64,000 bases of DNA from Candidatus Omnitrophota bacterium (GCA_037146775.1 JBAWWL010000001.1:69464-133463), one strand, 5' to 3'; numbered from the stretch's first letter, positions 21,001 through 48,000 are shown. Numbers and translations are program-made. Notes: generated from the letters alone by a model not told the origin.

Positions 21001-24000
21001 TTTTGAAGAACATGTTACCACGAAGGAAAAAGAGATTGGTGGCTTAGGTTTATTTCTTGCCCGCCAAGACATTGAAGGCTGCGGCGGTACCATTGAAATA
21101 TATTCTACACGAGGTGTTGGGGTGTTAGTTGCGATAGTTTTGCCTGTTAAGACAGGAGCAAATTTAGTGATTTCGTCGGATAAAAAAATAAGTTCGCCTA
21201 TCGCAACGTATCAGAACCATTCTTTCAGGCAGCATTGGCCGGTAATAGATGAAGAAAAGGAGCGCAAACAAACATTCGAGCTGGTTTTTAAAGTATTTAA
21301 CCGCGCTGGCTGGTTTATTCCGGATTTAAGAGAGGCGCAGGCCTTATGCGAAGAAGCGCTTGAACTTTATCCCGCAGAAATTGACTTCTTAGAGATTTTA
21401 GCAGAGATTTATTATCGTTTAAGAGAATACAGACGCATAGTTACCTTGCTTGAACCGGTCGTTGCAATTGATACTGCATATTTACGCTGGTTTGAATGGC
21501 TTGCTAGGGCGGAGGAGAAATTAGATAACGATCACGGCGCGATTATGTATCGTGAAGCGATTGCACAAAGAAATCCTTCTGATAGTGGCAATAACCATCG
21601 TTTGAGTTCGTTATATTCCCGCACGCAAAATCGTAAAACCCGTAGCTCCTCACCAAGCGTAGTTTTAGATAATTTTTTTGCCGTTTCTAGTCCCCTGCAA
21701 CAAACTAAACCCTGGAAGGGTCAGGAGTCAATTACGCAAGTGGCCGAGCGAGCGCTTGAATTATTTCGTAGCCAACCTTACCGTAGTATTTGGCCTGCGG
21801 ATGCTCATTTGATAATAGATACAGGATTCTCCGAGCCGCAAATACTTAAATATCGCAGCCAAATAAGGCAGGAAGTTTTACGTTTAGCTAGCCTCCAAGA
21901 GGATTATTACCGGCGCGTTTCGCTGGAATTAAGAATCATTTTTGCTAACCAGTGTCAACTCAAACAAAAAGGAAAAGGTTGTGTTGACCCGCTGCTTTTG
22001 GCCGTATCTATATTAACTGCGGCAAGAGACCGGCTGCAGCCTACAGAATTAATCCGAGAAAATTTAATTTTACGCTCATCCCGAGTGGCCGCGATGCTTA
22101 AACGGGCTTATGATGATGGTAATAAAGATATTGTCATGGCCAAAGAACAATTACTGCATACAAACACCGTACTTTTTGAGTATATTAATTATTGGTTGGC
22201 TAGGCTATTCTTAGAGGCACGTATTTTTGATATTGAGCAAATTATTGTTTCTTTTAACCAAAAGGGAATTAAAAGCGTGCAGCTGGCAAAGGGAAAAGCA
22301 ATTGAAGAGCAAATGATGCAGGAAACCACCAGAAAACATGTCATTACTTTATTTGAGGCTATTGCCAGGCTAAAAAGTAGCGATCCCGATTTGTGTGGTA
22401 TTGTTTTGTTGAATGCCAGGGATGCGCAAAGATTGACCGGCGTTTGCACTGTAGCGCAGCGCGAAACCTGGGAACCGATGAATGACTTGCTCACGCAGGT
22501 ATTTTCAGCCGGCCCGGAAAAATGTGGTCCGGATAACGATCCTTTACGTAAAGCCGCAGAGCATTTACGCGCAGCCGCTGATATCAAAGGAAAAACCTGG
22601 CGGGTGGCCATTGCCGGACAGAAAAAAGGTTACACGCATACCCACACCGCAGTTGCGCAAGGGATAATTCTAGCCGTAGAAAAGATAGTTGTTGCTGAGC
22701 ATAGGGTTGAGCCGCGCACCTTTACTTTTACCCGCGCCAATATAGAAGAACTCTTGGAAAAATCATGTTTTCATCATCTCGAAGACGGCGGTTTGAGCGT
22801 TTTGGCGTCAGTGAAGCAGTGCGTGGATTACGCGCTTTCTGATGTTATACCGGAAGACCAAAACAGCGACCAGTATTATTGGTATTTATTAGGCCAAAGC
22901 TTAAGAAGGCTTCGGGCGAATATAGTTATTGTTGAACAAGGCTGGTCAGATGCGCGTTTACAAGGAGAAGAAGGTATAGAGCATTTAATACAATGCTCTG
23001 CTAGGTTTGCCTGCGATTTATTCTTACGCGAACCGCAGCGTAGTATCTGGCCAGGTGCTGAGAGGTTGATTCAAGAAACCGGACTTAACCCTGCGCATAC
23101 GTACAAATATTCAGAAAGAATAGAAGAAGAAACATTGATGTTAGCAAAAGCTGCGCCAGCGCAAAGCCGGCGTAGCCTCATCCAACGTATTTCTTTCGCC
23201 ATTCATTATTATCGCATGAATAAACTTAAACTTGCCGGAGTGAAGGGTTGTACTGATCCTTTGGTGGTAGCAAGAAAGATAATAGCTGTTACTGCCAGAG
23301 AAGTACGCGCTGGAAGAATAATTGCCGAAAAAGAAATAGATTTAAGGCGTAATCATATTGAAGTCGCTGCGCAATTAGGCAGAAACCTGCTTTCTAAAAA
23401 ACATGCCCATGAATTGATATGCGCTATACATTTCTGGATGGTATTATTTTTCCAGGAACCTTCCGTATATGGGGTAGAAGAGGAAGTTAGTGCACTTACC
23501 TCAAGAGGCGTTGAGAGATTGCGCATTCAATTTATCCGTAAAAACGAAGAGCCTGTCCAAACAGCAAAAACTTTACATCACCTTGAGACAATACTGGCTT
23601 TAGCAATATTGGCCCCCGAAACAGATGTCGTTCAGGCAGTAGCTGGGGTTACGACACAGGTTGTATTAGCTGTTGATGCGCCTGAAGTTATAATACCTGT
23701 TGATCTAGGGACAGTTTTAGAAGATAGTGTTTTACCACCGTCCCCTGCAATCGCTCCGGCTTTAGGCGCTGCTGTTCTTGTAACTGAATCTTTTAGTGGT
23801 CAGATTCCCGCAGAAGTCATCGCGGCTAAACCAACCCTGGAAACTCAAGTCTTAACAGAACCAGCCACCGTATTAGCTGCAGTTACCAAGGATGAAGTTC
23901 GTGTTCCAGGGCAAGCCGGCATAGTTCCTTTAACTAGCCAACCGCGTTTAGTGGCAATAAATAAGCCGGAAAACGTTATGGTTGGCAAAAAATTTACGAT

Positions 24001-27000
24001 TATAGTTGAAATTTTAGATGTACAGGGAAATCCTGATGTAAAAGTGAGAGAGAAAATTACTTTTGAATCAAGCGATAGTGAAGCAAGCTATCCCACTAAA
24101 CCATATTATTTTACAAAACAAGACCAAGGCCAGCATGTTTTTAGTATAACTTTTGGAACTGTGGGGAGACAATGTTTGATTATCGCAGATTCCCACGATC
24201 ATTCATTAACTTTAAGTTTTGCGGTGGAGCCTACCTTAGAGCAAAGAACCGCATCTGAAGTTGAGCCCGTAGCGCATGTCCATGAATTTGTGAGCATTTC
24301 TCCCGAAACTCAGGCACAAGAGAGGTTATCGGGAGAAAATTTAAAAATTATGCAGGCAGGTATTGAGCATTTGCGTAGAGGCTGCACGAATATTATTATT
24401 ATGGGGAAAATTAAACTGATTGAAGAAGCCTTAGTTATGATTCATATCATGCAAGCCTTTACTCGAGGCCTCTGGAGTAGAACGGAAATTCGTTATGGTG
24501 GAGGAATGACAGAGGCGAATGTAAGAGAAGCATATCTGGCAATGCGTCATGATATTGAGGCCGGCGAAACCGATAACGTAATGGAAGGCACTCGTATCTC
24601 AGGTATTTTTTCAAGAATTGAGGTAATAGAAGATGGATTAAACCGCTCTATTGGGGTATTGCCGAGATCCATGGATTCGCTTGAACAGGTGTATTCAGTA
24701 ACCTTAGAATTACTCCGCGCAAGGGTCCCGCATCGAGAAGGCGAAGAAGACCCGATTTTAAATTTTATGTGCACTCTGTTGCTTCTTGAGGACCGCCGCT
24801 TACGTGATGAAGAATTAACCGTTCAACTCCAGAGAGCTAAAGAGCGCGTTATTGAAATAGCGCTTGAGGCCTATGGTCATGCTAGGTTAGCTATTGCAAG
24901 CGGTAATTTTTTGAAATTAGATAATTTACACGTGGCACTTACAAAAAAATGTGAAGAACTGAAAGCTTCTTATCAGATAGAGATGCGCGGATCATGGGCC
25001 AGTATTGAAAATATCTTTGAGCAGGAAAGAATAGAGATTTCTGAAGCTAATCTTGCTGGAGCTTTGGGAGAATTTATCGGAGATTCCATAGAGGTAGATC
25101 TAAAAATGACCTATTGGTTTTTAGCTATCCGACGTAGTTGGCGCCAAGAATTATTTCTTTTTGTCAGAAGCAGGGGTGATTTTATCCCAGGGTGTGTAAA
25201 TATAATGGAAGCGCAACCAAATCGTTCCGCAAAAAAGAAGAAATTACATCAGCCGGTTACTACTAATCAACTTATTGTTGTATCCGGAACAGAAGGCTTT
25301 AGCTATTTTCAGGTTTATAAACGCACTCTTTTAGTCAGTGATGGCAGTAAGGTGAGGTTGTTTAGGTTGGATGATCAAACTGCGGTTTTTGAACAAGTAT
25401 TGATTAATCCTTCGCAGTCCCAAAAAGGAGCGCCTTGCGGGCAAAAATTGGGGATTTCTGCGAAGGAGGCAGCCACCGGCCTGCCGCTTGTTACGACGAG
25501 TCCGCGGGGTTCCGCTGGTAAAAATGATATTCCGGAGTTAGTAATATCTCAAGATATTCCGCCGCAAAGGCGTAAAGACTTATTTGAAATCACCCTTGTC
25601 GGTGGAGGGATCTTGAAACTTGATGAAAACGGAATTATCCCTGCACTTAAAAAAGCGGAAACTCGGCACCATTTAATGCAGGACGAAGCTTCTTCCCCCA
25701 TATCTTACGAAAAGGAAAATTTTTCGCGCGCGCTTAAATTACCAAAGCCAATGCGGGTTATACGTATTGTTTCGGCAATAGCTATACCTATAATCGCAGT
25801 TATACTTTCCGTATATTTTGGCGGCTATTATATTTTATTAGTGGAATCAGGATTTTTTAGTTCCTTAGTTACCCAGACGATTGTTGGAGGTTTATCTCTT
25901 GGCTTTGGGATGTATATTGAACAGTCTTTGCGGGGAGCACTCCTGAGTCGCACTAATCTTGGAAAAATAATGCGTTTGACATTATTCGGCGGGCTCTATT
26001 TGGCAATTTTTGTCTTCGGAGCGTGGTATTGGTTTTTAAATAATTATGTTCCCAGTGTATTCTGGAAAGTTTTCCTTGACCTTACCTTATTTGCTTTTTT
26101 TGTCGTCATTCCCTGCAACTTTTTTATCTATAAATATTTAGTTTGCCTGAACCGGGAAAAAATGGATTTGTGCGAGACTTTAAAACGCGCATTACAGTAT
26201 TTTGTTTTTAACGCTCTTTGGTGGGGTTTATGGCTTGGAATAGGATGGGCCTATTATCCTCAGTATATTGTTCTTATCGCGGTTAATTCCCAGATTCTTT
26301 GGTCAGGATTTATGATGTATTGGCTTGAATCTTGGATTGAGGCAGCACATAAAGAAAGTAAAGCAGGGAGTGCTGCTAAAGATTTACGCCAAGGAAATAG
26401 ACAAAATCCAACCGCTAGTTCCCCGCATACATCTTCCTCTCCGCTTTCTTTAGGTATACCAGAGTTTTCATTGCCTTTATTTAATGGGCCGGTGTTTATC
26501 AATAAACAGCATGTATATACGGAGACTCCTCCAGACATAGATATGGATGATTTTTTAAGCCGAGCTCCTAATTTACCAAGCTTACAGGCTTTACGTTTAT
26601 CCCGAATGCTAGAGAAGGCAGGATTTGCTGGTGATGATGTAGTGGTTAATGGGCAAAGGCGTATTGTGCTTATGGGTGGGATAGTTGAGCTCTGCCTGGT
26701 AAAAGAATTTGCGCGTATAGCCATGAGAGCTGCCCAACAAGAGGAAAAAGTAGAAGTGCTAATGTCTTTGGACACGCTTGTGTCCGATGAGTTGATATTT
26801 GTTGGAAACGAGAGGAAATTTCTAAAGCGTTATTTTTCTATCACCGATTCCGAAAGCCCCTACATTACAATCTTAAATATCTTGTGGCTTAATTACGCTA
26901 TTGTAATTTTGCAAAGCGATATGGTAATTGTCGGAGAAAATCAAAAAATAGTCATCCGTATTTTTTCTAAAAAAGAAGATTTATTTGAATATATAAGAGA

Positions 27001-30000
27001 TACTTATGGGCAACTTGCTAGCTCTTCAGTTCTTCAACATTATCCGGTTGAATTTTATTGGAATAGAAAAGAAGTTTATCCGGTTGCTTGGGGTGATTTT
27101 AATGAACCTGGGCATAAATGGCTTGAGGTTCCGGTATCAAATAGGATTAATTTTATGCCAAACGTGGCACAATATATCCGTTTTATCGAGCTTCTAGAAG
27201 GTTTGGGTATTCATACTGGTTTCAACGATCCAAACAGCTTAAGAACTTTACAAGGAAATCCTTGTATTCTGGGTGTTGTTGGTAGCCCAGGCACCGGAGC
27301 AAAACATCCCGCCATATCATTCTTGAAGCCCGATCAGCCAACCAATATTGTTATTGTTCAGCTTGGCGATGTTGCGAGCTTGAGCGATGAAGATTATATT
27401 AACGGATACGTTGTGGCTAAACGCAGGCAAGGAGCAGTAATTTTGTCAGCGCACTTAGTTACAATTGACGCGGTGCTTTGTTATGGCAGAGACAGTCAAG
27501 GGCTAGATATATTTGAGGTTGTTTTGCCTTCTTCTGGCGCAAAACTTATCTCCAGTAAAACATTTCCAGTAAATGGAATAACTAGCTCGCCGCTCAATTC
27601 TCACCCAGTACTCAGTACTCAAGACTCACGACTAAATAAAATCAGTTCACCGCTATCAAGTAGGCGTTCCGGCATTTCCCGCTTTAAAGACGAATTAGCT
27701 GAATGTGAAAAGTTTAGCGGGCTTTCTACTTTGTATTCTCAAGGGGTGCTTGGGCTTCAGCCCGAAGACGAGAGTATTTTTTCTCAAGTACCGCGTGCGG
27801 GATATTTTTATGAATTCTGGTGGCCAAGTACGTTTAAAGGGCCAGAATATTTAAAACTATGGAATATGGAACTTTGTTGGAATGGTTATCAAATTGCTTT
27901 TGGAAATATTAAATTTGTACCCATAGAGAAAGACGGCCGCCAGGGTTATGCGGTTTCGCTGTATACGTGTGACAGTTATGTATTCTTTACCGGTTTCGGT
28001 TTCGTTTATGATTTATTTGCCCGCATGCTTTTACGTTCTTTTGATATTGCCAGAATCCAGGGCATTGGTCCTATTATGAGGTTGGACAGGTATTATCATT
28101 CCGGAATTGATTTATCGCGCGACAGGGATGAGAAAAAATATGTGCATATTTTGCATACTTTGGGTTTTGATAAACATTCCACGCGTTTTGGCTATCTTAG
28201 AATAGATGACCGCGGATGGATGAGTGCTCGGCCGCAAGATTTCTATGCGGCACTTCGCACAAAAAGGCGTGAACTTTTTTATGCAAAGCGAGCCCAAAAA
28301 ATGCTTGGTAGCGGTCAAACGCCCAGCTTTTTAGATTGGATGTCAGGAGAATGGAGAAACGAGAGAGCTATCGAAAGTGTGCATAACGAAGTAGCTCTTA
28401 ATATGATATGTGAACAGCTGCGTGCTCACGCAACAGAAGTTAATCCAGATATCTTTTCAAGAGTAATAAGTAGGCAAGTTTATTTAAGCAGCCGGCCGGT
28501 TTCTTCGGCGATTTCGATTATTCCGGATAGCGCAGAGATTAACCGTATTCATAATCAATTCAGCGGCGAATTCGTCCGTAAACTCATTGTGTGGCGGCTT
28601 GATGCCGCAGGACAAACACGCGCACATACCTTAGATGTTTTGGTATACAATCAACTCGATACTCAGGGCAAAGAAATAATGAAAGAATTACTTAGTCACT
28701 GGCCTCGGGAAGCAGAAATACTTAGCAGACTTAATGATTTGTTGAGTTGCTCTATAGATCATCGTTATCGCAGTAGCCATCTTGATTTTCAGGCGGCATT
28801 TGAATTATTGGATACTATCGGTAGAAGTTCAGCGCTCATGGTTACACATGCCGATGTTTTAACTACTATTCTTTCTAATGAGGAACTCGGTAAAGAATTA
28901 GAAGCGTTATTGTTGTCAGCATTGTCTATCGCTCGTCCCGTTCCTCAAGCAATTACCGATCAGCTTCCTTTGGTTGATGATGCTTATCTTGCTGTTTCAA
29001 AGAATGAAGCGGGCAGCATTGAGGCGGTAGAGTCTATAGTTTTTGTTTCGTATGGAGGAAGTACAAACACGGTTTTTCTATGGAAGAATGCTCCGCATAA
29101 TTCGCTTATACCTTTATGGTTTGAGAAAGGATATATACAAGTTTCTGGTTTGTATCGGGATTTTGACGTAGGCAGACAATTAGTTGCTTTTGCTGGAGAG
29201 TCTGCGGTAGGCGCTGACAAAAATATGGAGTTTTTGCTTTCAGGATTTGCTGCTGATGAAGCATTAAAATCAATGGGTTTTCGGCGTGGAATCAGCACCT
29301 ATAATACAGCCGAAATTAGGCAAGTTATCACAGCATTTTCTCGCGCTACTGCTGGGAAACTACACCAAAGCGTGTTGGCAGGAGATACAGAAGGCCTGCA
29401 ATTACTTAATACTTTGCTTCGCAACGCTTCAAGCTCGCCGCTCCAGAAAAAGCCTCAGGAAAAATTTAGTGCAGATTCTGGTTTCTCTCCGCTTGATGGC
29501 TCTTCGAAAGCCCCTGTTGTAATAAATAATCCGCGGCTTATCCGGGTTCATTTTGACGGTATTGCTAGATATGTTCCACAGGGACTGGCGGTTATTGAAG
29601 AACGAATTGCATCTTGGTTAAGACGTAATCCTATTTCTAGTCAGACAAGTCTTTTATACTATCCAAAGGACAACTTTTCGGCTCATGAAATTTTCACTAC
29701 AACCGGGTATATTCCGAATGAAGCTTTTTTAGGATTTGCCGAGAGTGAATTTATTTTAACCGGTGGGTCAATCGTCTGCTTAATTAACGCACTTTATTCT
29801 TTATGGACGTACTATGCTCGCAACGGGCAGGGTGTGCGTTTTATTGTCGCCCACGATTGTTGCTATGCCGTAGGTAAACCAGGCTACTTTTTATCTATCG
29901 TAAATGGTGATTCCCACGATTTATGGAAAAAGCCACATGAGGGGATTTTAAGAGATTTAGGTATTTTGTATTACCAAAACCGTATTGGCGGTTTTCCTGG

Positions 30001-33000
30001 CGAAAACCCTTGCGGCGCGTCTATTTTAATAGAGAGCGTAGATAGTATTGATGATATTCAGGTTTCAGAAATAAATCAAACCCATTTCTGCCCTAGTATT
30101 ACTATCTCTGCTAGTTCGTCCAGCTCGTCGCTCGAAGAGGGTATAACCAAATCCCACCCCGGAGGTGGGCTTTGGTTGGATATGCCGCAACGTTTCAGTT
30201 CGTATCAGGATATCAACTCACGACTCACGACTTATGACTCACGACTAAATAAAACTAGCTCGCCGTTGTCAGCAAAAGAGCTTACGGTTGCAGAACAGGC
30301 TAAGCTTGTTGAAGCAGAACAAATTCTTGCCGCAAGAAGAGAGTCTGCGGATTTTCTCTCAAGAACATCTGCGTTATATCCGGGAATAGGCAAAACCACC
30401 GCTATCTTTAGGCTGATGCAGCAACTTTTTGGCGGTCAACCAAAAGAAGATGCTTATCTGCAGTTAACCTATCGCTGTAGTTTCGGTTGTGATGATTGTA
30501 TTGCTATTAAGGTGTTGCAAGGCTCCGGTAGAATAGAAGCCGATGAATCAACATTATATAGATTGCTCGATAGCCTTAAAGGATTCAAGCGGATATGGTT
30601 TGTTGGCGCAGGAGAAACTACTGCCTGGGGAAAAGAAAACTTATTCACGCCGAGAGTAAGCGATAAATTTATCCGGCTAATTCAGTATGCCTGTGACTGT
30701 GTTGGTCCTGGTGGCAGGGTGATGATTGTTACCAATACCTACCTTATTCCCGAAGAAGAAGCTTTGCAGCAGGAGTTTTTCGGCCGATTCCAGCGCGAGA
30801 ATATTACCTGGGTTGTGTCTGTCGATTATTTCCATGAAGAGAAACTACGCCAACATCACAATAAAGAATTAGCAGCGATCACTAAATCTATGGAAAAGCT
30901 TGCTTACCGCAGGTTTATTAAAACTGCTTACGAAATGAGATTTGTAAATTCTCATGATGAAACTTTACGTCAAGAGATACTTGAGCATTTTGGGCTATAT
31001 AACAAATACTTAACAAGCAGAAATGATTTTGCTATTCATGACCCGGTTGCCATGGGAAATGCCCAAAGTCTTTCCGGTGCGCGGCCACTAGATCTTGCAG
31101 CGCTCATCAAAGATAACCGCCAGCCTTCCAAGTTGGTTCTTTATGTTGATCCCCGGGGCAATGTCGTTACTTTACAGTTTGTCGCATATATGGAACAGAC
31201 AACTAAAGATATGTTGCACCAGGTGTCAGATAGCAAAGAGAAATTTGTTATTGGTAATATTTATGCTAAACCGCTTGCGGATATTATCGCGGAGGAGTTA
31301 TTACTAGGAAATTACCGTAGAGCCTATCGCAGAGATATGTATTATTTCGTGCAAGATAGAATCAGGCGGTCTATAAACGAAGAGAAGAAGGCAGAGACTT
31401 TTAATCGTTCCTTATCGTTTGTGGAGCGCAGTGTTGTCTGGTATGTACTGGGAGAAGTTGAGGTAGCCCGCGCTTATCTTAACGTACCATGTGTTACCCC
31501 TGATTTGCGCTTGAATGTTTTGGATACGGTTTATCGTATACTTCTTGAGGCTAATAGCATTGACGCGGTAAGTTTTACCCGTGATTGTTTCCCGCAAGAA
31601 TTTAATGCGGAATTCCTTAAAGAGAACGGAGTTGAGCTTGGCGATGCCATGGCCGTTCTTTTTTCTGACCGGTCGCTACGCTTGGCTATGGAATATAGTA
31701 ATCATTTTAATGTATTAAGTGATTGGTGCGGTTTTCCTCGGATCTGGGCGAACTCTATTGATGGACATAAATTATGTTGTCCTGTCTATAGGTTCGAGTC
31801 AGTAATGCACCATATGAGTTTTCATCCAGGCAGAAATCTGGGGGTATGGCAAATAACTCCAGTTGCGCCTGGAGGAGAACATATTGAGATTAAATTAACG
31901 CATGGTTGCAATAACAGTTTACGCATTTACCGTGAACACTACGCACTCGACCATGCTGGTGTCGGCTCGCACTGTATCGGTTTAGCTACCGATCAATATG
32001 CTACTTCTTACTATTGCATGGTAGAGGATTACTCCGCTATGCAAGATTTATTCTTTGTTATTCAACAGGCAGTTAATGCTAACAGGCAGTATCAACGGTT
32101 AGCGAGCGTTTGTCGTTCGCTCGGTGAATTTTCTGCGCGTATAGATCGTGCCGAAATTTCTTTTAATAAAGATTTTCCGCAAGCGCCTGCTGTCATGGTT
32201 ATTGGGCAAAGAGGAATAAGAGAGGATAATCAAATCGCAATGCGCCAAGACGGTACTTTTGTGATTGCTGATAGATATATACTTGCGCAAGAACCCCAAG
32301 GGCAAAAGGCAAGTGTACAGTTAAAAACCATAGTGGTTAATTTTGCGGCAGCTTGTGCCGCACAATTACCTGCAGAGAGTGTGGAGTTGGTAAGGCAAGT
32401 GTCCGAGAGCGCTTTTGGTGATGGGTTCGCCCGTGGTTATGCTTCAAGCGCTATAATCTCTGATAACGATGTTGGCTCAGCCAACTCACCGTTAGTAGCT
32501 ATGCAATTTTCCGTAACTTTTGATAAAAGAGCCATTTTTCCGGATTCAAATGGCCGCGATAATAAAAAAACAGGAAACAGAAACAATACAAATTGGTTGC
32601 GGCGGGATCGGGGCTGGCCTACCTTTCCGTGGCTGGCGGAGGCCAACTTCCCTGCCGTACCTTCCCGTTTACGTTTTACATTGCCTATATATATAGGTAA
32701 GGGTTTTAGGCAGCCAGATAGCCGCGGCCCGCCAACAGGAGTCTCTAATTTATCTGCTTACTCGCTCGCCAAAAATTTCCCCGATAATCAATTAAGTTCA
32801 CCCCTCAGCTGTTCCTCGGAGGCCTTAGGAAGAGTTCGTAATGCTTTGTCCGGACGAGAGTGGTATTCTGGTCATGAAGAATTAGCTAAAGGAATGGTAG
32901 ACGTCTTGGTGGCAGCTTTTCAGAGTAAAAATATTGATCCTTCCAACCGTTTACGTTACGGAGTTATTCCTGTGATTGGTGCTGCTAAAAACTTGGACAT

Positions 33001-36000
33001 ATTTATTCAGTGCATGCAGGCTGCTATTGATATCGCCCAGCATATTGTTACGCCGGGAGAACACGGTATTGATAAATGGTTTGGCCCGGATGCGGCTTTT
33101 GCCGTAGATTTTGAAATACCGGATTGTGCTTATGGTACAAGTGGGTCGAATGACTTAAGAAGTAGACTAGCCGCAATACAAACAAAAGCTGAATCTAGGC
33201 TATTAGTAAAAGCAGCGAAATTATCCTGGAAGCAACATTTTAGAATTGGGCGTAATTTAGGCTATACCAACTGTATACATTCCGGCCCCCTTGGCCCATC
33301 TTGGTCTCCTGGATCGGTTGCTTACGGTATAGCGGCTATTGGTGCCTACCATAAATTTATTCATAACTATAGTACGGTATTAGAAGATATGCTTGTAGGA
33401 AATGGCGAAGCTGTGCAATTGATGGCAAAATTAAGCAGACATATTCGTTCGCAAAGAGAACTTATCTATCAAGGAAACCTTCGTCGTTCAGAGGATTTTG
33501 TCGCCGGAGTTACTGTGCGGGAATGGCAGTGGGATGAAGAATGGTGTCTATACCCGGAATTAAATCTTCAGTATAACGCAGTAGTTAGCACTATCCAGAG
33601 AATAAAACATTTTGATCAGGTGGTTATGCGTATTATAGGTGATATTACCAGTGTTTATCGAATGAAGAGAGGAAAATTTTCCTCTTTACCGCAATGTGAA
33701 GAAGAGGCAATACTAGCGCGGGAATATCTTGATTACATAAAGCGCCAACATTGGGATAGCAGATATCCTTATCTTTGGCCGCCTGTGTATCGTGCGGTAT
33801 TTTTACTGGATTATTTAGGCAAATATATTGATTGTAACGGAGAATCCACACAGGAGATTATAAGAACCGGGCAGGCGCTTGATGTCGGTATTGAATGGCT
33901 TGCTACTAGTGGAATGGAGGTACCAAGTTGGTTTGTTCGCCAAAGAAAGATTATTGAGTTAGCAGAGCAATATGGTGTACCGCAAACTCCCAAAAAATAT
34001 TTGACCATACTACAGAAAGCTTTGCAAGAACCTACTCCTTTAGGCTGTGACCAAGTCTGGCACGCACCAATAGATTTTACAGATTGTGTAGAAACTAAAT
34101 CAGCGTCAGTAATCTCTTCGACAACAGAAAACATTGAAGAGCTGGTTGTTATCGGGGACGTACACGATAATGTATCTGGCTTAGCAATATTGCTTTCGGA
34201 TATACGCCAGTATTATCCCAGAGCTCGTATGATTTATTTGGGGGATTACGCGGATAGTTCTGATGACAAAGCTGATCCCCGGGAAACTGTACGGGTAATT
34301 AACTCTGAGAAGGAACAAGGATCGATACCTATTTTGGGTAATCATGATTTTGCCATATTGCGGGCAGTAAAAGGTGACAGAGAGAAATTCGTTTGGTGGC
34401 TGGATAATAGAGGAGTGCATACTTTTCACAAAATACTTCGTGTAACGCCTGTTTTTGACGTATCCGTTGCCGGAGCAGGGCTCACGGTTGACGAAAGCCA
34501 GGTAGCACAGGCGCTTAAAAAAATGCAAGAAAACGAATTTTTCCAACTTCTGGCGCAAAATTACAGTGAATTGCCTTTATTTTACCGTAATGATGCTTTG
34601 GGTATACTTTGCCTCCATACTGGGCCAAGCCTTGAAGTCAGACAGCTTAATATTGTACAAGACACCAAGAGCCTAGAGGTATTGAATCGATCTTATACGA
34701 TTAGAAATTATAATCAGCGGGATGTTTGGGAATTTCTCATGTATAAAGGATGGCATAATGTGAAAGAAGAAAAAGTTGAAAGAGCGTGTAAACTTTTCCA
34801 CGCGCCCTACCTCGTTCTGGGGCATATTATCCAACGTAAAGAACCGTTTTACCGGCGTATCGGCAATGCTTTTATGATCGATAATAATCTTCAAGGCTAC
34901 CTGTTTGTTTCTAGAGAAAGAGGAATAAGGTTTATACGTCTTTTGTCTGATTCAGCCCGCGATGAAATAGCACTGGTAAGTGCTTCCGAATACACCCAAC
35001 GTTTAGCTGAATTTAGGAATTTAGGAGATACCCACGCGTCTTCCGCAATAGAGAATTCACAACGCCCCGTAATGAAGAAAACGATAAGAGTAATGCGGCT
35101 GTTGTCTGTGGTAACAATACCAATAGCTGCGATTATGCTTTCATTTTATTTTGGTGGTTGGTATATTATCACGGTTAAATCAGGGTTTTTTACCGCTCTG
35201 CTTACGATGTCTATCGTCGGCGGTATTTCGCGTGGTTTGGGAATGTACGTTAACCAAACGCTTAAAGGAGAACATTTTAACCGTAAAAACGTAAAGAAGA
35301 TATTGCGTTGGGCATTGTTTGGAGGGTTGTATTTAGCGATATTTGTCTATGGTGCATGGTTCTATATTTTAAATACCTATATAACCGGCATTTTTGCGAA
35401 TATATATTTAGAGGCAGCTTTAAAAACCTTCCTTGATGTAACGCTGTTTGCCGCATTTGTCGGCCTGCCGGCAAATTTCTTTATCCACAAATTTTTGGTG
35501 TGTTTGAACAAAGAAGAAATAAATTGGAAAAATACCAAAGAAAAATTTAAAAAATTATTTATTTATAATGCCATTTTCTGGATTTTGGGATTAACTCCCG
35601 GATGGATTTGGTTTCCGCAATACATTGTCCTTATTGCAGCAAACTTGGGAATACTATATTCCGGCATATTGATCTATTATCTTGAGGAATGGCTAAGAAC
35701 TAGCGACAAGAAGGTTGCTAATAAAGTTTTTGTTCAGCCAAAAGATAATCAAGCCCCACATTCCAGCTCGCCGGTTTCAGGCAAAGAAAATATTAAAGCC
35801 AAAAAGCAGGGATTAAGAACTTGGTTAAGAAAGAATTGTATGTTAGAGGATTGTGATGAAGCGCTTAGGGAATATCAAACTCAGTGGTGCCCGGCTGAAG
35901 TTGCTTTAAGAAAAATTAATCGCGATATTGGTGTAGATTCTGATAGCCCACGATATCTTTATCGTTACAGAGGACAGGCTCTGATGTTTGACGAATTGTG

Positions 36001-39000
36001 CGTAGTAGCTACAAAAATAATGGAAGTAAAACATACAATCAGAAAAGAAATTGATTACTCTGTAAATGTTTGGGAGACCATTGAATTTGCTTTTGATATT
36101 GCGCGTTCAAGAAGCAAGCATAATTACCTTGCGGTTATTTTTGAATTGGTGCCTGGTAAGCATGGCGTAACGGGTTGTTCGACGCATCGTGATATTGATC
36201 CAAGAGCTATCCGCCGTGTGTTTGTCTATAACAAGATTACAGAGCATTTCGAAAGGGTTTACAAAAAATATTTAACACAAAAATTACGCCATGCCAGTTC
36301 ACCAAACGTTAATGATCCATTGGACAATCTTTTATTGGCAAGAATTGCTCTTGATGATGCTTTGGCCGATGAAATCAGCCTTTATGTGAGTAATTGTTTT
36401 GTTAACATAGGAATACGCAAAAAATTCAGAGGTAATCTTGAGTGGGTGAGAGATTGTTTGCAATCAATCGCAAAAAAGATAAAAGGTGGGCAGTATTCTT
36501 TACTAAAGGCAAAAAGTCGTATCAAGGAATTACAATTAGTTGACACGCTTAAAAATTTATTTCACCTTGTTTTAACAAGAGATAAAGATATCTTTTTGCA
36601 TTTAAGCGATGAGCAAGTCCGTAAGATGGCTGGTGATGATGGGCATCTGCGGGTTGCGATCGACTTTATGTTTTTATTTTCCGAAAGCTTAGCTTCAAGC
36701 TCTAGTGTTTTTGCACATGATTCTCACTCCATACTCCATACTCAATACTCAATACTAGATAAAGCCAGTTCATCCTTACCAGAAAATGCTTCGCCGCGCG
36801 CTCCTCCTGAGCTTGAGGATTTACTCAAAATAGAAACGGGTTTACCGCATTTACTTTCACAATTCTTCTTAAAGAACCGAGTAATACTTGCCTTATTAAC
36901 CGCGCTCACTCATGCCCTTGGATTTTTATTTCTAGGAATGGCAAAACATTCACTTTATCCTATGCAGCTTGCTTTTTGGCTCTTTTTCTTCAATTTATTT
37001 ACCGCCTGCATAGTATTTTATCTTTTAGCAACTAATAATAGCTCGCAAAGTACTTTTAAATTCTTTTTTAGTCTTTTTAAGGTGCTACGTAAAAAAGACT
37101 TTGTGCACCTATTTTTACCTTCATTTATTAATGTTATAAGTTCCATTATTTTATATTTCATTTTTCCTTATGTCCCTGGAGCAATCATACTGACATTTTT
37201 ACAATTAACTATGTTTACCGCACTTCCTTTAGCTTTGCTTTATAATGGCGAAAGAGAAGGCTGGGGGAGAAAGATTGTCGGTGTTTCTATAATTGCTATC
37301 TTAGGATTATTGCCTATGCTTGCCAGCGCCAGTCTTTTTAATTTATATGCTTTATATGGAATTGTCATCGGACTTATGTATGGATTGATTACTCCTTTTG
37401 GCCGCAGGCTTTATCAGGATGTATACCGCCGCGCAGTAGTACAAGATAAAGACGCGCAAACTTTATTTGTTAATCTTCCTTATTTTACCATGGTAATCAG
37501 CTACGCAGTGGGTTTGCTGGTTATGGCACTTACAGTATTTTTTATTTTTCCGACGCCGCTGCTTACTTTTCAAGGAACTTCAATAATTACCGGCCGTATC
37601 CTATTGCCATTTTTTATAGGGATTACATTTTTTATCGGTACCTGGATTTGTGCCTTAAAGTTGCAGCAAATGTTTACATACAATATTTCGAAATATTCTC
37701 CCCTGACTGCATCTGGGCCAATGTTCAGTAAGCTTATTGAGGACGGCATTATGCATGGTGGGCTACTGCATCTTGAAATGTACCCTTCGTTACTTCCACC
37801 GCTTGCGGTAATTCTGGGTGCCTTTATTGCCGCAACCGGAAAGAACAAGAAAGATCATCTTTCGCAAAATAGTATGTCAAATATCGCCAAACAACAACTA
37901 ACTTCAGCTAATTCAGCTTCTCGAAGCTCTTCGAGTGTAGGAGAATCTTTTGTGGCCACACCTACTTTAGATAAAAATACTTATTTCGTTGGCTCGCCGA
38001 GAGGCAATTTGGTAAGAATCTCTGTGTCTGTTTCAAAAATAAGAGCAGTAAATGCTTTATATCGTTCACAAACAGATCCTACGCCGTGTCAGGGAGAGAA
38101 AGCTTTAGCGCAATTGGCAGCTTTTCCCGAATTTCCACACAATTATAATTCGCGACTCACGACTTATGAATCACGACTAATCTTATTTAAGGCAGACCAG
38201 TTTCGTCGCATTGCGAGCGGGACGAGTTCCCCGCTTAGTTTAGAGGATTTGGATTTAACTACGCAGAGCTTACTCGGCGAAGGCAGTTACGGAAAGGTTT
38301 TTAAGGTATTTCAGCGCTGTGCCGACACAGTGTATGCTCTCAAGGTTTATTGTGGTAGCTACCCTCATCAGCCGGATGAGCGGATGCCTTTAATCGATTA
38401 TTTGTTAGATTTTTCTCTTCGATACCCACAACTAACCAGTCGCGGTGCTATGCCACGTTGTTATACTAAGGGAGAGTGTTGGTTGAAAGAAGATAGGATC
38501 GTTGAGGTACCTAACGGGTCTTGTGTTTATCCTTGTGTTATTATGGACTATATTCCCGGCGAGAGCTTAGAGGCGCGCTTAGGGCAGGAATGGCGCACAA
38601 GAGGGAGTTGGCAGCATTGGATTAGTATTCAAGACGCCGTCGAACGCGAGTATGCCGGACTTGCGCTTTTAGAAATATTCGATGTAGTCAAGGCGAAACA
38701 GCTTTCCATTATCAAGGAAAAATTGGAACTGGCATCACGTATCGCGCAAGCAGTCAGTGCTTTCCATGCGGCTGAGATAGTTATTAAAGAATTAAAACCC
38801 GACCATATCATCTTAGGACCAGAGGAAGCGATAGCTTTGGTTGATCTTGAAGGTGCAGTTCCGGTTCATTATGATTGGCAGGAAAACTCGCGTAATATTC
38901 CGCGGGCAGTACGTCGTACACACACAAGAGGGTTTTCGGAAAACCCTGTTTTGCTACGTAGCGATGACCCTACTGTACTGGGAGAGCTAAAAACCATGCT

Positions 39001-42000
39001 TACCGAGCAGTGGGATATTTATAGTTTCGGAATTGTATTGTTTGAAATGGTAGATGTTGTTACCGCGTTGACCTGTAAAAAAACCAGCGACGGGGGATAT
39101 AGAGAGGTTATGCCATTGACGCGGATAAGAGATGAAATAGACAGTTTAAGAAGAAGCCATCCTTGGGGCGACATTAATGGTGTGCTTTTAGAGATTTATT
39201 CTGTGATTGAACGCTGCACTACACTTGAACGCTCACTCCGCTATAAAACGCTTATTGAGGTTAGCGATGACTTGCGGCTATTGGCTGCACGATTGGCTCT
39301 ACAGATAGAACCAATCGTATCAAGATATTCAGCGCAGCGCATTGTGGCTAAGAATGAAGATGGCTGCGCCAGTTCACCGCTGCAAGACTTTATCTATCAA
39401 GAACTAGGAATTTTTGGTCCAGGAGTTGTTTATCCGAATAAAGTAATTTTTGTGGTTGGGCCTAGCGGTTCTGGAAAATCAACCCTAGAAGATGAATTGC
39501 TTAAACGGTATCTAGATAAATTTATTAAGCCGGATCGGGTCAGGAATAGGCTGCCCAAGCCGGGAGAAGAAAAAAGGAATTCCAGGGTATTTGTTTCTGC
39601 CCAAGAATTTATGGCTCGAGAAACGAGCGGAAGAATTCGTTTTGCCACTCAATTACGCGGTAATTGGTATGGATATGATGTTTTTCATCTGCTAGAGGCA
39701 ATGAGATCAGGTAAAACTATGCTTGTCTCAGCTCATGGAATTTTAGATCGCATACGGCCTTATTTTCCTAATAATATGGTAGTGGTGATTTCATCCGTAG
39801 ATTTAAATATCACCACGCAAGGGCAATTACAAGATGCAGTAGAAAGGAGGATCCACGCTCGTAGTCGCACCATTTCCCAGGAAGAGGTCTCATCGCGACG
39901 TAAGGAAGCTTTAATATATCTTCCAAAACCATCCGAGTGGGAACAGGTTATTAATCCAGACGGCCGGCTTACGGAGGCGACCAATAGATTTATAAAATTA
40001 GCAGAGCAATTTATTCAACAAAGACGAAAGCAAAAAGCACTAATTCTTGATTTAAATCATACCTTGTATAATCCGGATGCCTTAGGCGTGACCAAAGCAT
40101 ATCGCGAGGCAAGAAGTGAATTTTTATCCCAAGAATTGCAATGTACTCAAGAACAAGCTAAGGAACGATATCGGCAAGAAAAAGCGCAACTTAAAGCAGA
40201 AGGAAGAGGCGCTATCAGTGTGGAAGTTTTACAAAGATTAGGTATCAATCCGGCCAGGTGGGGTGAGGCTGTTATCACAAAACTGGATTTTGGCGGCCGC
40301 TTCGCAGGACAACTTAAGGAAGATGTGCGATTGCAAGCAGTGCTTACCAGTCTTTCTCAAAAGTATTATCTAACCTTAGTGACTACCAGTGTAGCGGAAT
40401 TTACAGAATTGATACTTAGCTCTTTGGGGGCAAGGCATTTCTTTGATTATATAACTACAGGTTCAGATATTCCTATGCTAGCTAAACCTGATCCAGAACT
40501 GTATAGAATGGTTTCTCGTGCGTTAGATGTACCGATGGAAAATTGTTTAGTAGTCGGAGACAGTGTAGACAAAGATATAGAACCGGCGCAAAGAGCAGGG
40601 GCAAAGACATATTGTATAAGCGGTCAGCAGGATATATACCGCATAGACGAATTAGCCGGAAAGTTATTAGGAAAAAGTGGGTGCGCGGTCAGTTCATCTA
40701 TAAAACAGTGTATTAATTGGAACTTGAAAGATTATATCGATTTACCACAGACACGGCAGGCAATGGGGATTCTTCTAGCTGATAAATATGTTTTTTTCAG
40801 TCGTAACCACAAAGCCAAACCGCAGCAATTGTTATTTCAATATCGATGTAGCTCTCCCGGCTCCTTAAGGTCTGATTTGCCGGCTCAAGCGGTAAGGCAA
40901 AGTTTACAAGCCGCTATTTTGATTCGACTAGAGCAACATGATAAAAAACGTGTTTTTGTTATAAGGTTATTCGGGCCTCCGGGTTCAGGCAAGACCGAAG
41001 TGTACACACCTTTTTTAATGCATTGGTTAGGACAAGAAAACCTTAAGATAGCACATGTTACTAGTTTAGGTAGTCTCGAGGCAGAGCTTTTAGAGGTGAT
41101 GGTGCACGATATAGATGTTTTAATAGTTGAAACTAGCGATTATGAATTTAGGATTAAAGATTTAAAAAATGTTGATTTTTCTATAAGACTTTCTAGTAGT
41201 CGGCAAAGCAGAGAAGAACATCTTAGGCTAGATGGAATCGGCGGTGAAAACTTAATAAGACTTTTAGATAAAGGCGACAGAGTCCAGGCGAAAGGCCTCA
41301 ATTGGCAAGATCCAGATATTATTATTGATATCGATAGCGGTGAAATAAGAGGAAGAAGGCGCGTAACTTTATCGTTGGAATATTTAATAGAGGAAATCCT
41401 TAGGGATTTTCCTCTTGCTACTAACGCCGAACTTGCTAGAGAAATCAAACAACAATATGGCTTGGAAGTTGAAAGGGAATGTCCCGATTTTTATGGCCGC
41501 GTAACGGTGCTAAGAAAGGCGGTAGATTTGGATATGGGTATAGTAACCAGGACGTTTGTAGTCCATGCACAGACTGGTCAGCATCACGAGGCGGTGATCG
41601 CGATTGGAACAGACGTAGTTAATCCTCTAACCGGAGAGCTACTGCCAGAATCTGAGTGTAATGGTCGTTTATTAAGACCAGATTTGTATGGCCCATCATA
41701 TGTTTCGGCCAGATTATCGATAGGAAGAGTAAATAACCTATGTGAGGGTAGATTTGTGTATCGTCTACAAGACTGGAATGGTCATCCGAGTATTGAAGTG
41801 CATAGTGTGTTTGTAACATTGCACAACCAGCATGTTTTTGGAGATAAAAGGTTATATAAATTCGTGGGGGCCAGATTGATGCAGACAGCAGCCATCATAA
41901 GCAAAAATAATTCTCAAACCCAAGGAGCCTTTCATCTAAGGTCTTTAAAGCTAAAAGCAGAGGCTCAAGATTTTTATACTGCATTTGCCGATTACGGACT

Positions 42001-45000: not shown

Positions 45001-48000
45001 TGGCCAAGATAAAGCACAACAGTGTTTGACCATGCTTCAGGCGGCGCAGTCGTTAGAAGCTACCCCACAGTTTCGTCCCGCCGATAACGATCGCACCAGC
45101 TCGCCGGCAGACAGAGGTCAGAGGCCAGATGTCAGAAGTCAGAATGATGCTAGTTTATTTCCCGATTTCTATGCGCCACACGCAATGTGCATTGCGCTAG
45201 TGGCTAGCTCGCCGGCATTTTGGGATAAGCATAAGATTTATAAAATATTAAGAGAGAACCAAATGTCTTCTTATGATATGCAAGAAACTTCGCTGCCAGA
45301 AGCTTTTGGATCACTACGAAGAGGTTTTAAGAGGCGTTTCGAACGGGTTAAAGTGCGCAACGCCGTAGTCGAAATGGTAAGAGATTTAGCCGGATATCGT
45401 AGCTCAGATTGCACGGAAGGTATTAAACCTTGCTCGACAGTATGTTTAGGGGTGCCTTGTGCGGTAATTGCTTCTGGTGGTGAGGTAACTTTATTTCAAA
45501 GAATGATTGCTGTTTTGAAACAGTTGGCGATTTCCTTAGATTCTCAAAGAAAAATTAATCCTTATCAGACGCTTTTACGGTTAAAAGATTTTGTGGATAC
45601 TACTCTTACTTTAGATGAGTTTAGCCAGGCGGTAGCTGTGGCTAATGATGCCGCAGCCTGGTTCCATGACCAGCGTGTAAGCTTTGAGTGTACGCTACCT
45701 GAACAGCGTTGGTATCATACGGGAGTATTAGCAATAGGAGAAAGAAGCGGCCTCAAGCATGCTCAATTACAGGCGATTATAGGAGATTTAAAATATTTTT
45801 GGGCGCTCTATCAGCTTCTCTGTATTGTAGAAGAGAAGTGTTGGGCATCAACGTATTATCATATATCGGAAGAAAAAAGTGATTGTTTAGGATTTACATA
45901 TTCAAAGGCATATAGGAATGATTATAATTATGCAGGAGAAAATTCCGGCAGTGGTTTTCTTAACTTTAAACCATCGCAGGCATGGATTTGTGCGCAGATA
46001 AAAGCAAAAGGTCTATTCTTGCGCAATCTTATTAACACTGTAGCTCCTTTTGTCGATGCGATGCGTACCTGCGAAGTAGGCAAGCGTTTCTTTGCCGCTA
46101 TTGATGAAATGATGGCAAGCGCCGTTTCTACGCGGCCAGAACACTCTGTTGATATCGATGAAACATATTCAGTTCCTAGAGGGGGAGACGCTAGCGATGT
46201 ATATCAAGGGCAAATTGAGGATACTTTCCATTATGTACATGTTTTATTAGTTCCTTTTCTTGACGTTGACCGCGCTCGGCATATCTTAGAGGCGGTTGAC
46301 TATAGCGCCTCTAGCCCAACTGAGGTCGGTATTCTTTTAGAATGTAATTATAATTGGCTAGAGGCCGAAAAGCATATTCTTCTTGAATCTTTTTCTTCAC
46401 CAGAAAAGATTTCTGCCGCAGCCCGCAGTCTTTCTCAGGCTCCTCAGGAGGCAGCCTGGGGCAAAAATTTTACCCCGCGAATTTATTATGAGCTGGCATA
46501 TTGGGCTGGCCATCCGAATGAACACAGGCCAGAGTATTTTAATTTACTCAAAATTATCGAAGCTTCAGTACGTAACCGTTTACACATTATGTCCGGATCT
46601 AAAGAAGAAAGGTTTTTCCAGGAAATTTATTACCTGCCAACAGCGGAAACACTAACGGGAGAGGTTTTGTTTAGTCTTCCTGAGCAAGAAGCTCCATATC
46701 AAGAAGATTGGGAAAGAGATCTTCTCAGAAAAACATGGCTATTTTGCAATATCTGTATGGGCCAAGCCCAGGGTTTTTCTGGGCGGATATTCGCTGATAG
46801 CCGCAACCGAGGAGGAATGGATGACTGCTCCAATTTTCTTGTGCCTTTTGGTTTATGGGTGAGTCGCATTAACTTGGAACTTAGCTGTCAAGGCTACAAC
46901 CGGCGTGCGTTTTTTACCCATCTTGGCGGCGCCTATGGTATGGTTGCCCAAGGAGGATCATCTAGACAAGTTTTTTCTGCCGAAGAGATAATTCAGGATG
47001 TGGTCAATGAGTATAAAATTGCCTTAGCATTTAAACTCGAAGAAGATTTAAGCGTGGGAAGCGCTTGGCAGAGAGCCATAAATAGTTTTAATCTGACCGA
47101 CACCGAAGCTTGGCGTAGAAGATTGGTAAAATTAGAATTAGAAGTTTTATCCCGGCAAGGATTTATCTTAGCCACAGAAGTCAGCAAGCGTTTAGGTTTT
47201 TCACCTACAAGCGCAGTCAGGGATTCTGTCAGTTCGCCGGTTACTCATAGAAAAACCAAAGAAGCAGAAAAACAAGAAAGAAAACCTTGGTTGCGGCAGG
47301 TTGTTTTTGGCCAGCTTACCTTTCCGTGGCTGGTGGGGGCTGGCCAGCCTGCCGTAGCCGTCACACATAGCAACAAAATGTTTTCAGCGACGATAAAATC
47401 GTATCTTTTTAGCAGTCTGGCTAATAAATCCCCTCCGGTTGCAGACTCTCCGTTAGTTAGTTCTTCGCAAACATCTAACTCAACACCCAATACTTATGAC
47501 TCGCGATTAAGTAAAAGTAGCTCACCGCAAGCCGATATCCTTTCAGACCCAAGCCCATCTTTATTACGCACACTTGGTATTTTAGAAGATGAATATATTT
47601 TTGGATACTACAGGGAAATTGCAGCTCAAAAAGTTTTAGAAAAGCTTATTCCTTACATTAGTCGCATGGGTCAACCAGGATCAAAGTGTTCGGAAGTTAA
47701 TGCTTGTGATGCAATGTGGGTTAATTATCTTGTCTATGCATATCTTTACTGTATTGGAATGCTCAACGGTATTGTAATCGTTCCAGCTTCGGGGTGCGGC
47801 ATTTTTCCGGCTCTATTCTCTGATACCATAGCCATTGATTTCGCATCAAAAAAATTACGTCAGAGCGATGATATAACTACGGTAGTACGATTTATGCATG
47901 ATAATTGCAATCAAAATCGTCGTGTGTTCATGAGGCGGTTATCTTGGGCAGCCAATGCATGGGATTCAAGGCTTGAACCTGACGCTAGGAATATTAAGCA

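Follow-up and report, generated by a model that had tools for sequence, protein, structure and literature searches.

A kinase-fold module with glutamate at the catalytic-base position in a giant multi-enzyme protein of Candidatus Omnitrophota

The stretch analysed here, a window of 64,000 nucleotides (nt) from a Candidatus Omnitrophota bacterium (GCA_037146775.1 JBAWWL010000001.1:69464-133463), lies within one open reading frame (ORF) that includes a protein kinase-fold domain (Table 1). By sequence comparison, this domain belongs to a small, undescribed kinase family whose named members are almost all from Omnitrophota, and in which the catalytic base alternates between Asp and Glu. A first-pass annotation made from the sequence alone had noted a kinase-like domain with substituted catalytic residues at 38240-39320, and every motif string that it quoted was found in frame +2 of the window. 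As far as the searchable literature shows, this is the first Ser/Thr-kinase-fold module noted in the giant proteins of Omnitrophota. A literature search for Omnitrophota and threonine kinase found nothing relevant, and PF00069-type Ser/Thr kinase domains are not mentioned in the main text of either paper on these giant proteins (10.1101/2023.11.21.568195; 10.64898/2026.06.07.730766). Pseudokinase calls rest on three residues; a family that alternates Asp with Glu and keeps the other landmarks is a clean natural test of Glu as a catalytic base.

Our query was a segment of 400 residues (nt 38180-39379, residues 12727-13126 of the window ORF), of which residues ~20-373 make up the domain; residue numbers below are those of the query. 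A profile hidden Markov model (HMM) of the family drew an envelope of residues 12731-13118 on the window ORF and found no second kinase copy in the window. Alignment to the Pkinase HMM, a check that the first-pass annotation had proposed, gave 34.0 bits for PF00069 against a gathering cut-off of 31.7 (E-value 2.7e-8; only the C-lobe aligned), so kinase homology is present. NCBIfam kinase models all scored far under their cut-offs on the domain. Searches of the PDB with phmmer matched RIPK1, PKC (PKC-iota), PERK and GCN2, while the family profile matched 598 kinases there, with PKR the best at 7e-12.

Structure prediction, the second check proposed at first pass, also returned a kinase fold. 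The AlphaFold2 (AF2) model built with the family alignment is bilobal, with a predicted local distance difference test score (pLDDT) of 84.3, a predicted template-modelling score (pTM) of 0.86 and blocks at 92-94 across the catalytic and DFG region. The model was confident only with this 11-sequence alignment, as single-sequence input gave a pLDDT of 34. Foldseek matched the model to at least 1987 kinase chains in the PDB, all with a probability of 1.00. PknB, RET and IRAK4 led these matches, and the best was PknB 5u94 (E-value 5.6e-11, TM-score on target 0.71). Sequence and model together identify the segment as a complete Hanks-type (eukaryotic protein kinase, ePK) Ser/Thr-kinase-fold module within a giant protein.

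The register of the catalytic motifs was set by three independent alignments, to RIPK1 ('VIHKDLKPENILV…ADLG'), to PKR ('LINRDLKPSNI…GDFG') and to seven canonical HRD/DFG kinases. In this register, I-K-E corresponds to H-R-D, a His to the Asn of HRDxxxxN, and D-L-E to D-F-G. The catalytic-base position carries Glu (E204, codon GAA) for Asp, and all three alignments bear out the proposal that HRD has become IKE with its Asp changed to Glu. The further proposal that the DFG Asp is replaced by Glu was mistaken: the Asp is kept (D222), as it is in 12 of 12 relatives, and it is the Gly that has changed to Glu (E224). The His (H209) at the position of the metal-binding catalytic-loop Asn was not part of the first-pass annotation. 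No canonical HRD/DFG pair lies elsewhere in the segment or in the whole ORF; HRD and DFG strings are absent from the domain, and the pattern [HY][RK]D[LIVM][KR]xxN has no occurrence across the 21,333 residues of the window ORF. The alphaC residue at K+18 is Asp (D73), where canonical kinases have Glu, and E254 is likely the APE Glu, assigned by its spacing.

The query fails two canonical ePK catalytic features, the HRD Asp and the catalytic-loop Asn. Operationally, a pseudokinase is a kinase-fold domain in which any one of the beta3 Lys, HRD Asp and DFG Asp is absent (PMC12599244). Because Glu stands in for the HRD Asp, the domain is, judged by its residues, a pseudokinase under this definition.

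Conservation across the family is sparse, with 24 of 334 alignable columns (7%) conserved at 90% or more, among them K55, G127 (the hinge Gly), H196 (the alphaE His), K203, D222, T249, D279, G284 and R354. The catalytic position holds Glu in eight members and Asp in four and never another residue, so that a carboxylate is present in 12/12; among 91 non-family kinase hits, Asp occurs 83 times and Glu once. At the catalytic-loop Asn position we found Asn in eight members, His in three and Gln in one, and His occurs only alongside Glu at the catalytic position. The HRD-His position is always hydrophobic (I/L/V), which is compatible with a role in the regulatory spine, PKA having Tyr there. The HRD-Arg position is Lys in 11/12, while the residue at DFG+2 is Asp in eight, Glu in two and Lys in two members (acidic in 10/12). 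Other landmarks are likewise kept: the beta3 Lys in all 11 members that cover the column, the P+1 Thr in 11/12, the likely APE Glu in 10/12, the subdomain-XI Arg in 10/11, and the Trp, Asp (alphaF) and Gly of subdomain IX in 12/12 each.

Two conserved features are specific to the family, namely a VP-x-x-Y-x-W motif just past the DFG equivalent and the Trp ahead of the alphaF Asp. Within the former, which canonical kinases do not have, P228 and W233 are invariant and V227 and Y231 are conserved at 90% or more. On the alignment, the family signature is a non-RD loop [ILV]-K-[DE]-L-K-P-x-[NH], D-x-[DE]-G in place of DFG, and VPxYDW.

The distribution of residues at the catalytic position identifies the Glu as a maintained family variant alternating with Asp, and not as a product of decay. 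The GAA codon is a single base away from GAT or GAC, and the contig of one relative is frameshifted, which would fit a sequencing or assembly error or a functionless, decaying relic. Such an explanation is very improbable, as eight of the 12 independent family members have Glu, the 64-kb frame is open throughout, the predicted fold is confident and the landmark residues are conserved.

The family itself is small. An exhaustive HMMER search over 1.84 billion representative sequences gave 134 hits, of which ~12 are close relatives with 30-45% identity to the query, giving a family of ~12-13 sequences. We rejected about 40 of the 134 as tandem Ig-domain proteins (P0011-P0016, P0018-P0021, P0029 and others), whose E-values, down to 1e-12, are spurious because each adds up 5-19 weak matches to residues ~205-250. 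The remaining hits are ordinary kinases. A word-indexed protein search had no match with the single query sequence; profile input brought up P0004 and one generic kinase, and nothing else. An exact 38-mer search had no match in the genome_contigs and viral_contigs sets, from which the source contig is therefore absent. Searching the GTDB species genomes with a 3-sequence alignment recovered three relatives only, all of them metagenome-assembled genomes of Candidatus Omnitrophota.

Metagenome contigs added one further true relative, L004, which is a frameshifted copy of P0008; another candidate, L005, was rejected as an ordinary HRD/DFG kinase. On L004 (Ga0124853_1226660, nt 110-982) there are many in-frame stops, and the frame breaks right after 'WDITVLG', beyond which homology resumes. 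Either this copy has been frameshifted or pseudogenised, or its assembly is in error. Five of the six cluster members with a source name are from Omnitrophota, mostly as 'hypothetical protein, partial'. The sixth, P0009 (MCX6654297.1), is a 158-residue fragment on a 4.5-kb contig that was binned as a Candidatus Bathyarchaeota archaeon, and is probably mis-binned Omnitrophota DNA. The sole cultured member of Omnitrophota, Velamenicoccus archaeovorus, is reported to prey on archaea.

Like the query, its close relatives sit in large or giant proteins or in very long open frames. L002, an Omnitrophota locus on a contig of 448 kb, has an open frame of 21 kb, while in L003 the kinase domain lies at the end of a frame of more than 3186 residues. 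P0007 is a complete protein of 1660 residues with the kinase domain at its C-terminus, and the adjoining genes encode 2253 and 4943 residues. The flanking domains differ in every case, and we found no conserved neighbour domain among the relatives. P0001 has Metallophos upstream and APH and a sugar transferase downstream; L002 has MutS_V and SEC-C upstream and a methyltransferase downstream; HATPase_c_3 lies downstream in P0005, and CheR and HTH_8 lie upstream in P0006. Because the neighbours are not conserved, the kinase domain can be described as a portable module, one that in these comparisons is without an obligate link to the guanylate-kinase-like or HAD domains beside it in the window.

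Those neighbours are as the first-pass annotation had described them, with a membrane domain upstream and a guanylate-kinase-like P-loop, a HAD domain and a second P-loop downstream. The membrane block is followed by a Ser-rich linker of ~130 residues. The positive-inside pattern of its eight strong helices places the kinase side in the cytoplasm, and a hydropathy scan found no hydrophobic segment between the kinase and the P-loop/HAD domains. Taken together, these two observations suggest that the kinase lies in the same, probably cytoplasmic, compartment as the P-loop and HAD domains. The module is probably tethered to the membrane on its cytoplasmic side.

The best NCBIfam similarities of the HAD domain, both below cut-off, are to TIGR02253 HAD-type hydrolase (CTE7) and to a pyrimidine 5'-nucleotidase. 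Its motif I reads L-I-L-D-L-N-H-T (DLNHT; nt 40040-40069), with Asn for the second Asp of the usual DxD. This Asp is the general acid/base of HAD phosphatases, and its change suggests altered or reduced phosphatase chemistry. The second P-loop, GPPGSGKT (nt 40973-40996), has no assigned family. Downstream of the kinase fold, the two P-loop modules and the HAD domain thus make up a local group of domains that handle phosphate.

This setting bears on the possibility that the kinase fold has been repurposed in a multi-enzyme nucleotide/sugar context, be it for AMPylation (as in SelO), glutamylation (SidJ), or phosphorylation of small molecules, sugars or lipids (POMK, APH, Kdo kinase). The neighbours of the domain are a nucleotide-kinase-like P-loop and a nucleotidase-like HAD, P0001 has the APH and sugar transferase noted above, the active-site cluster of E/H/D/E is unusual, and the D-x-[DE] motif is also that of POMK (PMC12599244). 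We nevertheless consider repurposing quite unlikely, given that the neighbours vary among relatives, that canonical protein kinases, rather than SelO, SidJ or APH, match it best in both sequence and structure, and that the activation segment, P+1 Thr, alphaF-alphaI and subdomain-XI Arg are kept. Small-molecule kinases with this fold usually lack the ePK activation segment, alphaF-alphaI and subdomain-XI elements.

The reading that we favour, tentatively and with our judgement almost evenly divided, is that of a membrane-tethered, ATP- and metal-binding module with slow or specialised phosphotransfer, weak or atypical. ATP and metal would still be bound through GxGxxG, the beta3 Lys and the DFG Asp, and His209 and Glu224 may change the metal site. 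Family members without an alphaC acid always have D or E at DFG+2, and with a weak or absent alphaC acid it may be this residue that pairs with the beta3 Lys. Such pairing of a D-x-D/E acid with the beta3 base has been proposed for the DYD family of kinases and for POMK (PMC12599244, section 12). The acceptor would be a protein Ser/Thr, with the giant protein itself (in cis) or a partner as the most plausible target. The reaction would run in the compartment, probably the cytoplasm, that also contains the neighbouring P-loop kinase and HAD domains. The catalytic-loop Lys (ELKP; Hanks and Hunter subdomain VIb) and the P+1 Thr (subdomain VIII), both of them conserved in the family, are specific to Ser/Thr kinases. 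Since the activation segment, alphaF, alphaG-I and the subdomain-XI Arg are all present in the AF2 model, the substrate or partner would be a protein rather than a small molecule.

Conservation of the landmarks and of the carboxylate is easier to reconcile with a nucleotide/metal site under maintenance than with a dead scaffold, as other residues would be expected at the base position if no chemistry required a carboxylate there. The same carboxylate-retention argument has been made for the conserved Glu in the EFG motif of titin kinase (PMC12862963). Phosphotransfer by the domain is a prediction, which sequence alone does not decide.

Several observations weigh against the favoured reading. 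The metal-binding Asn is changed too, and the alphaC acid is Asp rather than Glu in a poorly conserved column that is acidic in only 7 of 13 family members. The Gly loop is degenerate in P0003, P0004 and P0007, and the catalytic-loop Lys is missing in P0005, P0006 and P0017; both suggest that the constraint on catalysis is relaxed in some parts of the family. In Csk mutagenesis (D314E), reportedly by Cole et al. in 1995, the change of the HRD Asp to Glu is said to have strongly lowered activity. At the DFG Asp, the same substitution usually cuts activity by orders of magnitude (PMC12862963). FHA and PP2C partner domains were not found in Pfam scans of the window. A neighbour-joining tree was star-like, and its bootstrap supports within the family were only 1-48%; with this topology and only 12-13 sequences, independent switches between Asp and Glu are not countable. 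Finally, a weak ninth hydrophobic segment makes the membrane topology ambiguous, and topology prediction is known as unreliable for Omnitrophota giant proteins (bioRxiv 10.1101/2023.11.21.568195).

Some of these observations would suit a non-catalytic pseudokinase, which keeps the fold and perhaps nucleotide binding and serves as a scaffold, switch or mechanosensor, as proposed for titin kinase. The HRD Asp is absent, Asn to His and the alphaC Asp are further deviations, Gly loops and the catalytic-loop Lys are degenerate in several relatives, and the window is without detected FHA or PP2C phospho-signalling partners. The analogy to titin kinase covers the giant protein, the conservative Asp-to-Glu change, the alternation of D and E among orthologues and the lack of a validated substrate (PMC12862963). 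We regard this explanation as a strong competitor, only somewhat less probable than the favoured reading. Against it, the beta3 Lys, DFG Asp and P+1 Thr vary little or not at all, the carboxylate is retained in every member despite ~30% overall identity, and the query has a perfect GxGxxG. Moreover, the VAIK Lys is kept in the present family, whereas each of the seven bacterial pseudokinase families described so far lacks it in some or all members (10.1101/2025.01.12.632604).

The first-pass suggestion of a pseudokinase scaffold or an atypical kinase with altered metal or substrate use is thereby retained in part. The domain is formally a pseudokinase, and altered metal use is possible through E204, H209, D222 and E224. 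Its premise of two lost Asp residues was wrong, however, as there is a single conservative change, which is not a private decay of this sequence.

The kinase module is bracketed by a short tripeptide, SSP, that recurs along the whole ORF. With 51 occurrences against 4.5 expected (at most 13 in 200 shuffles), SSP is the most enriched tripeptide of the ORF, at 11.3-fold. It usually occurs as [A/S/V/G]-SSP-[L/V/A], never falls inside a Pfam envelope (P ~0.002), and lies near both ends of HATPase_c, the kinase module and M23, as well as near one end of several other domains. A DNA-level signal was rejected: the 51 sites use 35 different 9-mers with both AGY and TCN Ser codons, so the constraint acts on the protein. 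In L002, 25 SSP were found against 1.4 expected, with the kinase module bracketed at residues 3334 and 3694; the motif is not present in the other relatives. Neither paper on Omnitrophota giant proteins mentions it, and the lack of known cleavage points is said to hamper the analysis of these proteins (West-Roberts et al., bioRxiv 10.1101/2023.11.21.568195). SSP is a candidate module delimiter, and could act as a linker or as a site of processing or modification.

A longer linker motif, T-x-Y-[DEH]-S-R-L-x-K-x-SSP, recurs ahead of several SSP sites, for example as 'TTYDSRLNKTSSP', 'NTYDSRLSKSSSP' and 'THYSRLDKASSP'. Its sites lie at nt ~29420-30265, 47490-47527, 27615-27652, 58200-58240, 2525-2563 and 38150-38233. 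A degenerate copy, 'TTYESRL…GTSSP', stands directly ahead of the kinase module.

A stronger version of the favoured reading would make the family a catalytically competent clade of kinases with Glu as the base. Here, the change of Asp to Glu, with co-varying Asn to His and D-x-E, would create an E/H/D/E metal site, possibly Mn2+-preferring. The kinase would phosphorylate the giant protein itself, conceivably at SSP, and so control its processing or assembly. We consider this unlikely. If true, the three-residue pseudokinase rule would have a natural counter-example, and bacterial giant proteins a first regulatory handle.

The host ORF runs in frame +2 of the + strand, from nt 2, for 21,333 codons without a stop and off both ends of the window, while the remaining frames have 827-1901 stops each. 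Because the frame is open throughout, the window is an internal piece of one giant gene. Its product is a mosaic of at least 14 Pfam domain types. These include serine dehydratase beta and alpha, DOT1-like and class-I methyltransferases, HATPase_c, a weak radical-SAM, Pkinase, the guanylate-kinase-like P-loop, HAD, B12-binding and radical-SAM, ART-PolyVal, peptidase M23, an RmlD-type epimerase and a further B12-binding domain. A hydropathy scan gave 45 windows over threshold, many of them overlapping or inside soluble domains, and four main transmembrane clusters. By its architecture, the ORF is a giant multi-enzyme membrane protein of the Omnitrophota type.

Omnitrophota giant proteins have been described as 'Archaeovorins' (West-Roberts et al. 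2023, bioRxiv 10.1101/2023.11.21.568195) and as 'multi-enzyme metabolic clusters' (2026, bioRxiv 10.64898/2026.06.07.730766). The present ORF resembles them in its length of more than 21,333 residues (the criterion being at least 10 thousand amino acids), its many transmembrane helices and its mosaic of enzyme domains, with matching methyltransferase, HATPase_c, radical-SAM, HAD, peptidase and sugar-nucleotide types. SecA_DEAD and an N-terminal C39/S8 peptidase were not detected in the window, beyond both ends of which the ORF continues.

Several parts of this mosaic stand out. A full serine dehydratase (beta and alpha) lies at nt ~14774-16130, an ART-PolyVal-like ADP-ribosyltransferase at ~55300-55690 (E-value 9e-5, below cut-off) and the M23 peptidase at ~59120-59380, so that one polypeptide holds an unusual mix of toxin-like, cell-wall-lytic and metabolic domains. 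A multi-transmembrane module of ~267 residues is duplicated internally (nt ~25655-26425 and ~35006-35775; 48% identity, E-value 1e-74). It has no Pfam match, and SSP follows each copy.

Table 1. Features of the kinase-fold module and its surroundings; positions count from the first nucleotide of the window
Feature	Position (nt)	Strand	Basis or remark
Upstream membrane block, 8-9 hydrophobic helices	36878..37837	+	residues ~12293-12612 of window ORF; Kyte-Doolittle scan; no Pfam match
SSP before kinase domain (…IASGTSSPLSLEDLDL…)	38225..38233	+	4 residues before domain
Kinase-fold domain	38237..39298	+	window-ORF residues ~12746-13099; Pfam Pkinase, family HMM, AF2, Foldseek
LGEGSYGKV	38273-38299	+	read in frame +2
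Gly-rich loop GEGSYG	38276..38293	+	perfect GxGxxG
ALKV	38336-38347	+	read in frame +2
beta3 Lys, K55 of domain (in YALKV)	38342..38344	+	aligned with VAIK Lys of canonical kinases
alphaC helix PDERMPLIDYLLDFSLR	38372..38422	+	residues 65-81 helical in AF2 model
alphaC D73	38396-38398	+	
Catalytic-loop string IVIKELKPDHIIL	38777-38815	+	frame +2
Catalytic loop I-K-E-L-K-P-D-H	38783..38806	+	HRDLKPxN equivalent; RIPK1, PKR and canonical-kinase alignments
E204	38789-38791	+	catalytic-base position
H209	38804-38806	+	metal-binding Asn position
VDLEGAV	38840-38860	+	frame +2
D-L-E	38843..38851	+	DFG equivalent; D222 at 38843-38845; Gly to Glu (E224)
Activation-loop motif V-P-[ILV]-x-Y-[DN]-W	38858..38878	+	VPVHYDW here; family-specific
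P+1/APE-like segment HTRGFSE	38921..38941	+	T249 is P+1 Thr, aligned with canonical Thr
Subdomain IX/alphaF WDIYSFG	39011..39031	+	alphaF Asp D279
Subdomain IX string DIYSFGIVLFEM	39014-39049	+	frame +2
Subdomain XI Arg R354 (in ERSLRY)	39239..39241	+	Arg in 7/7 canonical kinases
SSP after kinase domain (…DGCASSPLQDF…)	39371..39379	+	25 residues past domain
Guanylate-kinase/PhnN-like P-loop domain	39440..39870	+	Pfam Guanylate_kin, AAA_33; NCBIfam guanyl_kin and PhnN below cut-off
P-loop GPSGSGKST of this domain	39458-39484	+	
HAD-IA hydrolase domain	40034..40610	+	Pfam Hydrolase, HAD_2
Further SSP example sites	40850-40858, 20600-20608, 21191-21199, 58907-58915, 59588-59596	+	

Among known kinases, RIPK1 (H-K-D, DLG) and PKR (N-R-D) share with the domain a non-canonical start of the catalytic loop. 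Both keep the catalytic Asp and Asn, however, and the similarity is weak (E-values 6e-4 and 7e-12) and generic to the superfamily. Bacterial Hanks-type kinases such as PknB of M. tuberculosis (PF00069) have in common with it the bilobal fold, GxGxxG, the beta3 Lys, the Lys of 'LKP', the DFG Asp, the P+1 Thr, the alphaF DxxxxG, the subdomain-XI Arg and the tie to a membrane-spanning region. Unlike them, the present domain has I-K-E (hydrophobic/Lys/Glu) for HRD, His for Asn, DLE for DFG, the VPxYDW motif and inserts in beta4-beta5 and alphaD-alphaE. It also lies in the middle of a chain more than 21,000 residues long, rather than as the N-terminal domain of a receptor kinase.

Comparison with known bacterial pseudokinases, also proposed at first pass, showed a shared absence of the HRD Asp, but none of the seven families (ActPs1-3, GLW, CP1, DYD and DLHK; PMC12599244, 10.1101/2025.01.12.632604) fits. 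The VAIK Lys that is substituted in those families is invariant here (11/11), and the HRD Asp is conservatively replaced by Glu, not by Asn, Gly or another residue. The seven families occur in Actinobacteria, Firmicutes, Proteobacteria and Cyanobacteria, and neither of the two papers mentions Omnitrophota. By these residues and this lineage, the domain is outside all seven described families. The DYD family and the eukaryotic POMK (DLD) come near in their acid at DFG+2 and their weak or absent alphaC Glu, but DYD kinases combine D-Y-D with a beta3 Arg, where the present domain has DLE with a beta3 Lys, and the lineage differs.

Titin kinase (PMC12862963) differs in that its change is at the DFG Asp (EFG) and not at the HRD Asp. 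It is a eukaryotic, CaMK-like kinase with autoinhibitory tails and a bulky MAK motif, and common descent with the present domain holds only at the level of the ePK superfamily. It nevertheless resembles the Omnitrophota module as a kinase fold inside a giant protein, with a conserved Asp-to-Glu change that alternates with Asp among homologues, a debated catalytic status and a proposed role as scaffold or mechanosensor (PMC12862963). Be it phospho-regulatory or titin-kinase-like, an SSP-delimited module of this kind bears on the action, processing and regulation of Omnitrophota giant proteins.

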